Positions 3,110 to 55,065 of a stretch of 64,000 nt of DNA are shown piece by piece. The stretch is taken from NCBI GenBank assembly GCA_951406725.2, contig OX597815.1:24862001-24926000 (forward strand), read 5' to 3'. Positions within the stretch are counted from its first letter, which is position 1, and each line of letters opens with the position of its first letter. The DNA comes from Octopus vulgaris. Lineage: Eukaryota. The notes beneath the pieces were generated by a model. It had not been told where the DNA came from and searched no databases. It saw nothing but the letters and a program-made list of their open reading frames with translations. Made by a program: the position numbers and the translations under genes.

Positions 3110-3874
3110 GTCCTTTGGCTTGTTGGCTTCTGTTAAACTGTTCAACACATCACAGTACAAAAAAAAAAAACAGACATTAAACAGCAATGGTGATGATGAT
3201 GTATATAAATATGTGGGGGTAAGAGCTGAGGTGCACTTGAGAGTGTGCACACACACACATGTGTGTGTGTGTGTGTGTGTGTGCATGCAGGTGTCTGTGC
3301 ATTCACGCATATATAAATACCTTTTTTGTTGTGAAAATATTTTTTTCACATTTTTCATTGTGTAGTTAGACAAGAAAGGTCAGTACACCTGACATTTACC
3401 AAGTCTCTGAGATGAGTGGGAGGAAAAAAGAGAGTAATCCTCAAAAGGAAGATCTATCCAGAAATGTTTGTAACAGAGTGAGCTCTACAAAAAGTACTTA
3501 GAAAATACACAGGTGATAGTGTGAAACTAGGAAGTGGAGTAGTGTTGAAATTGAAGTCATGATGAGAAATGACTAAAATAGGATTGGTAACTACAATTTA
3601 GTAAGGAAGGGCAAGGTGTGATGTTTATAAAGAGAGAGAGGAAGAGTAAGGAAATTATAATAATTCAAATAACACTGAGAATTTTTTCCCACAAAATAGT
3701 AGTCTTTGTGTTAATTTAATATTCTTCAAGCAGAGTTACCTGCAAAATGTACAGGTATTGAAACAAAGTAACATGAAATAGAATATTGTGATCTGAGGTG
3801 AAATTGGCTGCTATTTTGCACATGCTATGCTACTATGTAAAAATTTTGGTTGTTGGTGAATGCATGAGACTGAA

Positions 3875-6160: not shown

Positions 6161-6469
6161 CAGGTTTATTGCTGCGTAGGAGCAATCATGTCTACCCACA
6201 TTGTAGAAGAGGGGGTGGGAGTGACCAGGTTGGAGCTGGAAACAGAGATAAAATTGGTGGTGTTGAGATATCAGAGTGAATCTTCAGGGTTTGAAGTGCA
6301 CAGAAGTGAGTGAAGACAGGAAAAACAGGAAGTGTTGGTGAGCAGAGGTAGTAAGAGCATTTGGGAGAGTAGGAGGTGGTTACAGATGGGGAATTGGTGG
6401 GGTGAATGAATAAAGAACAAGTGTTGAGGGATGGTTAATAGGAATAGGTGTGGCAGGGAAGGATAGGTG

Positions 6470-9907: not shown

Positions 9908-10322
9908 GTAGGAGTGGCTGTGTGGTAAGTAGCTTGCTTACGAACCACATGGTTTTGGGTTCAGTCTCACTGCATGGCACCTTGGGCAAGTGTCTTCTAC
10001 TATAGCCTCGGGCTGACCAAAGCCTTGTGAGTGGATTTGGTAGATGGAAACTGAAAGAAGCCCGTTGTATATATGTATATATATGTGTGTGTGTGTATAT
10101 GTTTGTGTGTTTGTGTTTGTCTCTCCAACATTGCTTGACAACCGATGATGGTGTGTTTACATCCCTGTAACTTAGCAATTCGGCAAAAGAGACCGATAGA
10201 ATAAGTACTAGGCTTACAAAGAATAAGTCCTGGGGTTGATTTGCTTGACTAAAGGTGGTGCTCCAGCAAGGCCACAGTCAAAGGACTGAAACAAGTAAAA
10301 GAGTAAAAAGAGGGTAAAGAGT
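9908..10322 (+). mobile_element. SINE family A
   Basis: tRNA-like head, CCTTGGGCAAGTG core, internal (TA/TG)n, tail GACTGAAACAAGTAAAAGAG repeats. Confidence 0.92.
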
Positions 10323-19698: not shown

Positions 19699-20318
19699 CT
19701 ACAGAACGCAAGTAAAGAACAATATACAAATCGCTTCAATATAGGTAAATGTCTCAAATAAAAGTTGGTCAGATGGAAGACCTAAGAATCTGTCCGATTT
19801 AGCATCATACCTAGTCTTTGGTTTCTTTTAGAGAAGCCATTGTAAGCATTTGGATCACACGTCCGAGTCTTCTTAGTAGACATTGTTTAACTGGGTATCT
19901 GGATCATAAGTCTCGTTAGTCTTGGAAATTCCAGAGATCGTGAGCATTGTGTCCTTGCTACTGATATAACGTGGGATTGTAATTTCCAATATTGTTTACT
20001 AGAATCCTCCCACAACAACAGTAAGATCATCAATAAAAATCCCTTCTCTTCCATTTGACTAGGGTTCGGAATGACATCAGGGATTTAAGGACTTTCATCC
20101 CTAAACGCAAACCAGACAGGGATGTAAATAAATTCTCAAAAACTAGATCAGATGATACTACAAATGTATGCGCAATTTCTGAATATTCCATTTAATAGTG
20201 AAAGTAAAATAAAATGAAACTAGAAGAAAAATTGAAAGCAGAATAAACATAAACAATAGTTCAAAATTTCTTACCCAAATAAATAGATAAATAAATAAAA
20301 TAAATAAATAAATAAATA

Positions 20319-20728
20319 GGCGCAGGAGTGGCTGTGTTGTAAGTAGCTTGCTAACCAACCACATGGTTCCGGGTTCAGTCCCACTGCGTGGCATCTTGGG
20401 CAAGTGTCTTCTGCTATAGCCCCGGGCCGACCAATGCCTTGTGAGTGAATTTGGTAGACGGAAACTGAAAGAAGCCTGTCGTATATATGTACGTATATAT
20501 ATATGTGTGTGTTTGTTTGTGTCTCTGTGTTTGTCCCTCTAGCATTGCTTGACAACCGATGCTGGTGTGTTTACGTCCCCGTCACTTAGCGGTTCGGCAA
20601 AAGAGACCGATAGAATAAGTACTGGGCTTACAAAGAATAAGTCCTGGGGTCGATTTGCTCGACTAAAGGCGGTGCTCCAGCATGGCCGCAGTCAAATGAC
20701 TGAAACAAGTAAAAGAGTAAAAGAGAGA
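20319..20728 (+). mobile_element. SINE family A, near-consensus young copy
   Basis: GGCGCAGGAGTGGCTG... to AAAAGAGTAAAAGAG tail; CpGs retained. Confidence 0.95.
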
Positions 20729-24287: not shown

Positions 24288-24636
24288 ACGGAGATGTATT
24301 TGCATAGCAAGTGACCTGATCTGAGATCGTGTGCTGGAACGAAAACAATTGCAGCATGGAAGGTGTTTATAAGCCATTTAAGAAACACACAAAATCCGTT
24401 AGATTCACTTCAACATTTAAATTTAATTTGTCAAAATATTTTTGTTGCTTTGAAACCGCGACCTGTTCACTGACAAAATTCCGTGCTGCATCTCGGAATT
24501 TTGTCAGTGAACAGGTCGCGGTTTCAAAGCAGCTGAAATATTTTGACAAATTAAATTTAAATGTTGAAGTGAATCTAACGGCTTTTGTATGTTTCTTGAA
24601 TGGCTTACAAACACCTTCCACGCTGCAATTGTTTTC
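24288..24636. mobile_element. Hammerhead-bearing ~200-bp repeat plus inverted partial copy (143-bp arms)
   Basis: 24341-24483 pairs with 24494-24636 around a 10-nt spacer; same family as 29488-29690 and 32447-32644. Confidence 0.9.
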
Positions 24637-29487: not shown

Positions 29488-29690
29488 ACGGAGATGTACT
29501 TGCATAGCAAGTGACCTGATCTGAGATCGTGTGCCGGAACGAAAACAATTGCAGCGTGGAAGGTGTTTATAAGCCATTTAAGAAACACTCACAAACCATT
29601 AGATTCACTTCAACATTTAAATTTAATTTGTCAAAATATTTTCGTCGCTTTGAGACCGTGACCTGTTCACTGACAAAACTCCGTGCTGCA
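29488..29690 (-). mobile_element. Hammerhead-bearing ~200-bp repeat
   Basis: ACGGAGATGTACTTGCATAGC...GACAAAACTCCGTGCTGCA; same family as 24288 and 32447. Confidence 0.9.
29627..29677 (-). ncRNA. Minimal type I hammerhead ribozyme-like motif (G3-C8 variant; one stem II mismatch)
   Basis: TTTGTCA GTGAACA G GTCAC GGTCTCAAA GCGAC GAAA ATAT T T TGACAAA. Confidence 0.6.
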
Positions 29691-29932
29691 TCCCTCTCAT
29701 AAAAACGTAACTAAACCCCTCTCATAAAAACGTAGGGATCAACTAGTCAATACAGAGGACCTCGGTAGGATTAGAACTCCGAACACCATGAGACGTGGCT
29801 AAATTACTCATATTTCCATGCGGTTCAAATGATGTTTTGCCACTCGTTCATGTCTTTTTGTTTTAGACGATAGCCTGGACAAGACACACACAACTTTTAG
29901 GGAAAGAAAATTGAAAGTAGTGGCCCGCGTAC

Positions 29933-32446: not shown

Positions 32447-32644
32447 ACGGAGATGTACTTGCATAGCAAGTGATTTGATCTCAGATCGTGTGCTGAAACG
32501 AAAACAATTGCAGCGTGGAAGGTGTTTGTAAGCCATTTAAGAAACACACAAAAGCCGTTCGATTCACTTCAACATTTAAGTTTAATTTGTCAAAATATTT
32601 TCGTCGCTTTAAGACCGCGACCTGTTCACTGACAAAAATCCGTG
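32447..32644 (-). mobile_element. Hammerhead-bearing ~200-bp repeat
   Basis: Third locus of the family. Confidence 0.9.
32586..32636 (-). ncRNA. Minimal type I hammerhead ribozyme-like motif (G3-C8 variant), best-preserved copy
   Basis: TTTGTCA GTGAACA G GTCGC GGTCTTAAA GCGAC GAAA ATAT T T TGACAAA: 7-bp stem I, 5-bp stem II, GAAA, 1-bp stem III with palindromic ATAT loop. Confidence 0.7.
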
Positions 32645-49884: not shown

Positions 49885-50300
49885 TCTCTCTCTCTTTCTT
49901 TTTACTCTTTTACTTGTTTCAGTCATTTGACTGCGGCCATACTGGAGCACCACCTTTAGTCGAGCAAATCGACCCCGGGACTTATTCTTTGTAAGCCCAG
50001 TACTTATTCTATCGGTCTCTTTTGCCGAACCGCTAAGTGACGGGGACGTAAACACACCAGCATCGGTTGTCAAGCAATGCTAGGGGGACAAACACAGACA
50101 CACAAACACACACACACATACATATATATACATATATACGACAGGCTTCTTTCAGTTTCCGTCTACCAAATCCACTCACAAGGCATTGGTCGACCCGGGG
50201 CTATAGCAGAAGACACTTGCCCAAGATGCCACGCAGTGGGACTGAACCCGGAACCATGTAGTTGGTTAGCAAGCTACTTACCACACAGCCACTCCTGCGC
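49885..50300 (-). mobile_element. SINE family A, young copy
   Basis: Closely matches the reverse complement of 20319-20728. Confidence 0.95.
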
Positions 50301-54650: not shown

Positions 54651-55065
54651 GGCGCAGGAGTGGCTGTGTGGTAAGTAGCTTGCTAATCAACCACATGGTT
54701 CCGGGTTCAGTCCCACTGCGTGGCATCTTGGGCAAGTGTCTTCTACTATAGCCTCGGGCCGACCAAAGGCTTGTGAGTGGATTTGGTAGACGGAAACTGA
54801 AAGAAGCCCGTCGCAAATATGTATATATATATGTGTGTGTGTATGTTTGTGTGTCTGCGTTTGTCCCCCTAGCATTGCTTGACAACCGATGCTGGTGTGT
54901 TTACGTCCCCGTCACTTAGCGGTTCGGCAAAAGAGGCCGATAGAATAAGTACTGGGCTTACAAAGAATAAGTCCCGGGGTCGATTTGGTCGATTAAAGGC
55001 GGTGCTCCAGCATGGCCGCAGTCAACTGACTGAAACAAGTAAAAGAGTAAAGAGCAAAGAGTAAT
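54651..55065 (+). mobile_element. SINE family A
   Basis: Full-length consensus-like copy. Confidence 0.95.

Follow-up and report, generated by a model that had tools for sequence, protein, structure and literature searches.

A hammerhead-like motif with a G3-C8 core pair at the end of a high-copy Penelope-like element of Octopus vulgaris

A repeat of about 200 bp in the Octopus vulgaris genome raises two questions: what kind of element it belongs to, and whether a hammerhead whose core pair is reversed can be a working ribozyme. C3-G8 is the core pair of the hammerhead and U3-A8 is a natural alternative (PMC3088659, PMC4209133), whereas the motif in this repeat reads G3-C8. In the literature found, G3-C8 occurs in engineered variants only (PMC11167929; PMC3884650; PMC8495972), and our search returned no published natural G3-C8 hammerhead, the surveys likeliest to list natural core variants lying outside its scope. 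In the hammerhead of a Penelope-like element (PLE), the engineered C3G/G8C swap partly restored cleavage (PMC11167929), the rescue being described as only partial (PMC11167929, PMC8495972), and PLE minimal hammerheads are themselves reported to cleave weakly and as dimers (PMC4209133).

The motif and its family-wide core

The repeat lies at 32447..32644, minus strand, of the window, the 64,000-nucleotide stretch of DNA analysed here, and is the copy described in the initial annotation. Its hammerhead-like motif occupies 32586..32636 (minus strand) and is exactly as annotated. It comprises stem I, the G3-C8 core, an unpaired G at position 9a, stem II with G10.1-C11.1, GAAA, a palindromic AAUAUU helix III and U16.1-U17. 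The swapped core box, G3-U4-G5-A6-A7-C8-A9, spans 32623..32629 and the predicted cleavage bond, U17|U1.1 in standard hammerhead numbering, falls at 32592..32593, both on the minus strand. Counting repeat positions from q1 at window position 32644 places G3 at q16, C8 at q21, the predicted cut at q52|53 and an ATG at q109. The RNAfold MFE structure of the isolated motif has 6 of the 7 possible bp of stem I and 5 bp of stem II, with a folding energy of −13.8 kcal/mol (z = −2.35; 5 of 200 shuffles equally good); the isolated AAUAUU duplex contributes only −0.2 kcal/mol. Compared with the PLE minimal hammerhead, the motif has stems I and II, G10.1-C11.1, the 9a nucleotide, GAAA, the palindromic helix III and UH, and departs from it in the CUGANGA box, where 3-8 complementarity is nevertheless retained. 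An Rfam scan of the window yielded no hammerhead among the best 150 of 381 matches; its top match was a miRNA model placed on an inverted pair of copies at 24288-24636.

The window holds four copies of the repeat, 92% identical to the query, which align to it over 24288-24485 (minus strand), 24491-24636 (plus), 29488-29685 (minus) and 32447-32644 (minus). The box GUGAACA appears in all four and the 3′ end ...ACATCTCCGT is common to the three full ones, both as annotated, while core and stem II are together intact only in 32586-32636. A second solo pseudo-LTR (pLTR) with tail, at 29488..29692 (minus strand), carries a hammerhead at 29627-29677 with an A-C mismatch in stem II. The third, at 24288..24493 (minus strand), is the left arm of a head-to-head pair, and its hammerhead (24427-24477) has G12A plus a stem II mismatch; the right arm, an inverted tail-less pLTR at 24494..24636 (plus strand), has a hammerhead (24500-24550) in which the 3′ arm of stem II is broken. 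The copy at 29488-29692 has GTAACTAAA on either side, with a 14-nt segment duplicated on the 5′ side; these flanks are a TSD-like repeat with extra templated bases. Another dispersed repeat of ~400 bp, 90-95% identical among its copies, occurs at window positions 49895-50300, 54652-55057, 20301-20722, 10070-10311 and 3-225. Open frames of at least 130 codons between 20000 and 44000 of the window include no convincing gene.

Across the 2.8-Gb, microsatellite-rich genome, exact-pattern counts, which are lower bounds, gave at least 7,572 matches with both halves of the G3-C8 core, compared with 4 for a control pattern. The 5′ half of the motif alone matched at least 6,291 times, a 21-mer at the start of the ORF described below at least 10,442 times, and a 33-mer just upstream of the motif at least 265 times. 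A count by eye gave G3-C8 in 93 of the first 100 copies listed; among aligned copies, 68 of 74 have it, and 59 of 72 keep all 12 scored core positions. The repeat is present in contigs of four sequencing runs, and for three of these the loose-end consensuses show the G3-C8 core. The genome counts and alignments thus support the annotated minimal type I, PLE-type hammerhead with a family-wide G3-C8 pair, as well as the expectation that CUGANGA-based searches would miss it, the box here being GUGAACA. Polymorphisms between subfamilies fall at 4 of 9 positions in loop II versus 1 of 42 elsewhere in the motif (p = 0.002 in a post hoc Fisher test), the sole change outside loop II being G-U-compatible. 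The greater constancy of those 42 positions over the non-coding flanks is not significant (1/42 vs 6/57, p = 0.23).

The parent element and the ends of its copies

Copies that extend upstream cross about 1 kb of microsatellite-rich sequence and then enter an ORF on the hammerhead strand. The resulting layout, which we refer to as family A, is a pLTR, one ORF of ~1,050 codons encoding RT, a zinc-finger-like linker and GIY-YIG, a ~1-kb microsatellite-rich 3′ UTR and a second pLTR. An RT/GIY-YIG ORF on longer copies had been proposed as a thing to look for, and it is present in the same orientation as the hammerhead. Direct pLTRs flank the ORF at two loci, L096 (hammerheads at 3742 and 8003) and L097, and 32447..32644 is 93-94% identical to both pLTRs of these long elements, which bears out the annotated Penelope pseudo-LTR. 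Since several loci on different contigs agree, ORF-linked pLTRs are unlikely to be assembly artefacts. The ORFs of L096 and L097 are interrupted by stops or frameshifts, the 5′-truncated L100 is open over 996 codons, and in no family-A copy examined do the ATG and an unbroken ORF occur together. Most RT-region copies among the matches listed are 95-99% identical to the query, so family A has expanded recently.

The protein is that of a PLE. Pfam GIY-YIG (PF01541) matches residues 886-976 of a representative sequence, P0001 (25.5 bits, cut-off 22.6), and its linker, C867-x3-C871-x2-C874, fits the CX2-5CxxC pattern reported from the Neptune and Nematis clades (PMC8557442). The RT motifs YVDD and DKSG, like the linker and GIY-YIG, are found in the protein of L100; Pfam RVT_1 has no match in P0001 itself and matches 4 of 26 aligned members. 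The predicted structure has a pLDDT of 85, and the top three Foldseek hits in the PDB are TERTs (telomerase RTs; E 2e-6 to 2e-5), with low TM-scores. Pfam searches with two ORF fragments gave nothing significant, and a PDB sequence search with the alignment gave two weak RT matches only. The element is a C-terminal-EN PLE with a Neptune/Nematis-type linker, which makes it a candidate member of these clades. That the 200-bp repeat is the pseudo-LTR plus tail, hence the 5′-truncated end, of a protein-coding PLE is close to certain. The ATG of the ORF lies at q109, so that the final 90 bases of the repeat encode codons 1-30 (32447..32536, minus strand, ATG at 32536, including the ~55-nt tail), and this frame runs on into the ORF in L096 and L097. 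The repeat had been described as non-coding and as a separate non-autonomous family; neither description is supported.

We examined copy anatomy in the first 100 listed matches of the ORF-start 21-mer, position-ordered along one contig (C1) and aligned. Their 3′ ends fall at q136-145 in 46 and at q191-198 in 52, defining an optional tail of ~55 nt. At the 5′ side, 55 copies begin between q-13 and q3, just upstream of the motif, 40 between q6 and q104, one at q-20, and four beyond q-58. An inverted, head-to-head upstream partner accompanies 64 of the 100 copies and a (TA)n-like 3′ flank 53, while TSD-like repeats of at least 8 nt bound 6 of 32 solo copies (one of them TA-rich) versus 0.7 in shuffles. 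Such pLTR, tail, inverted-partner and TSD features have been described for PLEs (PMC3846280, PMC8557442), those of rotifers having ~200-bp pLTRs with the first codons, a tail, an inverted pLTR and 8-10-bp TSDs (PMC3846280). The stretch upstream of q-5, which adjoins the common 5′ stop, resembles the 3′ end of an intron: in L003 and at L096:3700-3722 a branch-point-like CTAAC, a pyrimidine run and CAG/TAG lie just before q-5. Splicing at this point is not supported, copies that start there having no common upstream exon.

The 100 sampled copies include none that starts at q51-55, no more than 2 nt from the predicted cut, whereas an even spread of the 40 internal starts would have put about 2 there; the eight that start at q56-62 do so in AT-rich sequence and are not counted as cut-site starts. 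The description of the repeat as ribozyme-processed is therefore unsupported. The absence of such starts fits an uncut template and gives no sign of cutting.

Sister families and the 3-8 pair

Related families in the same genome were listed with a pattern excluding both G3 and C8, taking the first 100 of 274 matches and counting by eye. Among the matches listed, family B has C3-G8 in 16 of 23, family C has U3-A8 in 56 of 64, and an old family, E, has C3-A8 in 4 of 6; seven of the 100 are doubly decayed family-A copies, none of them C3-G8. The C3-A8 of family E (L120, L103) is not a Watson-Crick pair and could be a product of decay or a step on the way between C3-G8 and U3-A8. Upstream of family B there are GIY-YIG remnants at two loci, and no ORF was found for families C and E, save a tail peptide of C. 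Family D, by comparison, has open frames of 1,312 codons (L175, L176), with an ORF 55% identical to that of family A and a hammerhead with C3-G8 and C at position 9. It is a very young sister PLE, with hammerheads at L175:1630-1677 and 6218-6265, in L176 and at 18 of the 30 loci L145-L174. Its box CUGAUGC, with C replacing A9, is a second core variant, and C9 also occurs in a metagenome relative (L265). In the family D ORF (L175:1763-5698) a long asparagine-rich insert separates the RT from the N-terminal region, where family A has a short NH repeat only; it resembles the N-rich inserts that have been reported in rotifer PLEs (PMC3846280). A protein labelled Octopus vulgaris at its source (P0002) matches a sister ORF of this genome almost letter for letter by eye. 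Related families have the scaffold in common, and families C and D also have an N-terminal peptide similar to that of family A.

Among nine metagenome loci, three have a hammerhead behind the ORF, with C3-G8 in L263 and L268 and U3-A8 in L265. Five (L264, L267, L269-L271) have no convincing hammerhead or lack the pLTR, and L266 has a possible 3′ half only, at its 5′ end; these six loci were left out of the covariation set.

Stem covariation and core fixation were examined in 11 chosen representatives, in all of which positions 3 and 8 form a Watson-Crick pair (CG in 6, UA in 3, GC in 2). Two-sided changes occur in 8 of 11 pairs, stem II is 100% paired, and the covariation score was reached by none of 500 shuffles. 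U4, G5, A6, G10.1, C11.1 and GAAA are invariant in 11/11, while the ORFs, where measured, are 29-55% identical. Because the representatives were hand-picked with patterns that presuppose the core, are interrelated (about six or seven lineages) and include three misaligned at stem I, the covariation supports rather than proves constraint. A quick tree with unnamed homologues makes A and D sisters and places other C3-G8 carriers outside them, so that G3-C8 is likely derived, by two transversions. It is a single event, and two changes at these positions would yield a Watson-Crick pair by chance one time in three. Together these patterns suggest that selection may have preserved pairing at 3-8 rather than the letters themselves.

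On this sequence evidence, we assign a probability of roughly 70% to the reading that the repeat is a PLE end whose G3-C8 motif acts as a weak self-cleaving ribozyme, dimeric or helped by protein; cleavage by the motif would then be weak, though probably real. The principal competitor, which we consider unlikely though still to be taken seriously, keeps the PLE end and supposes that the motif no longer cleaves, persisting as a fold, a protein-binding site, part of an internal promoter or a recently dead ribozyme carried by a successful family. It would account for the lack of copies starting at the cut, and has parallels elsewhere: in the anole PLE, hammerhead mutants left insertion in vitro unaffected and no reads ended at the cut (PMC11167929), and Naiads are described as proliferating without canonical hammerheads (PMC8557442). 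Family E tolerates C3-A8, position 9 is C in family D, which is active, and the only partial rescue by the double swap in hammerheads that are already weak also counts against cleavage. What opposes a non-cleaving motif is that the pair was restored by two transversions and that U4, G5, A6, G10.1, C11.1 and GAAA have not varied across the representatives.

A proposed mechanism and its place among known systems

By analogy with the anole PLE, in which two internal RT starts within the ORF are reported on uncut RNA (PMC11167929), the protein of the element would nick AT-rich DNA and reverse transcription would start ~30 or ~90 nt inside the ORF. The cDNA would run back through the uncut hammerhead to the common stop, which lies 6-22 nt before stem I; judged by where copies stop, the stop near q-7 is most likely the RNA 5′ end, a structural block being the alternative. 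For Penelope, an internal promoter that lacks a TATA box has been reported (PMC2377424). The outcome would be thousands of copies of ~150-200 bp, often accompanied by an inverted partner joined head to head. In a full element, where 4.3 kb separates the two hammerheads, these could pair through AAUAUU and cut after U17, with G3 pairing with C8 and placing the 2′-OH of residue 8 as C3-G8 normally does. Cutting at U17 would process long transcripts, possibly aided by protein, whereas integration would use uncut RNA, and the cut is probably dispensable for making short copies.

The short copies might instead be a self-propagating non-autonomous family, retrozyme or SINE-like, whose source would be RNA that the ribozyme has cut or that is circular, with mobilisation in trans; this we regard as improbable. 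Short copies do far outnumber long ones, as the few that reach beyond q-58 indicate, and contig depth drops steeply beyond the tail. Seven sampled copies start at q-1, and in six of these (L203, L241, L242, L246, L247, L252) the 3′ end is at q138 and the inverted junction is the same, a sign that some compound units may themselves have been recopied; in addition, animal retrozymes are traced back to pLTRs in a preprint (10.64898/2026.07.22.740005). Against this, the short copies carry the ORF start and are 93-94% identical to long-element pLTRs, their ends do not match the cut site, and no full head-to-tail unit was found within 1.5 kb at 30 loci or in the window. The annotated retrozyme is not supported. 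The inverted partners would also suit a fragment of a TIR DNA transposon with a chance likeness to a hammerhead, but the head-to-head arms join at variable points, homologous motifs covary across families, and attachment to an RT-GIY-YIG ORF refutes an element with fixed terminal inverted repeats and a transposase, leaving this reading a negligible probability.

The core variant appears to be new, and this genome adds copy number and three pair types side by side. Since both the element class and its association with this ribozyme were already known, the gain is moderate. A natural, high-copy G3-C8 family beside C3-G8 and U3-A8 sisters nonetheless forms a matched series on 3-8 tolerance in minimal hammerheads, and lets one ask what importance cleavage has for PLEs. 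By implication, searches built on CUGANGA undercount hammerheads and may class some PLEs wrongly as lacking a ribozyme. More tentatively, at somewhat less than even odds, one PLE clan in one genome would combine C-G, U-A and G-C pairs with an active G3-C8 hammerhead in more than 7,000 copies and solo copies that are cDNAs of the RNA 5′ end, made by internal RT initiation on uncut RNA. If so, G3-C8 would be an active ribozyme at that copy number invisible to standard descriptors, and the solo copies a genomic record of internal initiation.

Family A has the organisation of EN+ PLEs of the Neptune/Nematis type: pLTR-ORF-pLTR, a telomerase-like RT, a C-terminal GIY-YIG and a zinc-finger-like linker (PMC8557442, PMC3846280), with the ORF start inside the pLTR, an optional tail, a head-to-head inverted pLTR, and TSD-like repeats of 8-14 nt at AT-rich targets. 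It differs in its tail, ~55 nt rather than 30-40, and in occurring overwhelmingly as solo pLTRs with a common 5′ stop. With the PLE minimal hammerheads of Cervera and de la Pena (2014; PMC4209133) the motif has in common an unpaired nucleotide between 9 and 10.1, G10.1-C11.1, GAAA, a short palindromic helix III, UH and its location in the pLTR. Natural U3-A8 covariation was already reported for that class, whereas G3-C8 in place of C3-G8 or U3-A8, a 7-bp stem I, and at 9a a G instead of the H of the published consensus set family A apart. Animal non-LTR retrozymes are likewise short repeats that have a type I hammerhead and are related to the pLTRs of PLEs (PMC7229834; 10.64898/2026.07.22.740005), but form non-coding head-to-tail tandem arrays, whereas family-A copies contain the ORF start and occur dispersed or in head-to-head pairs. 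In the anole Poseidon element PAc (Frangieh et al. 2024; PMC11167929), and probably in family A, two ORF-internal RT starts define the tail and insertion proceeds from uncut RNA; in both, a hammerhead lies near the start codon. The order of cut and start codon differs, the family-A ATG lying 56 nt after the predicted cut and the PAc cut 26 nt after its ATG, and C3G/G8C, an engineered rescue mutant in PAc (PMC11167929), is the natural state in family A.
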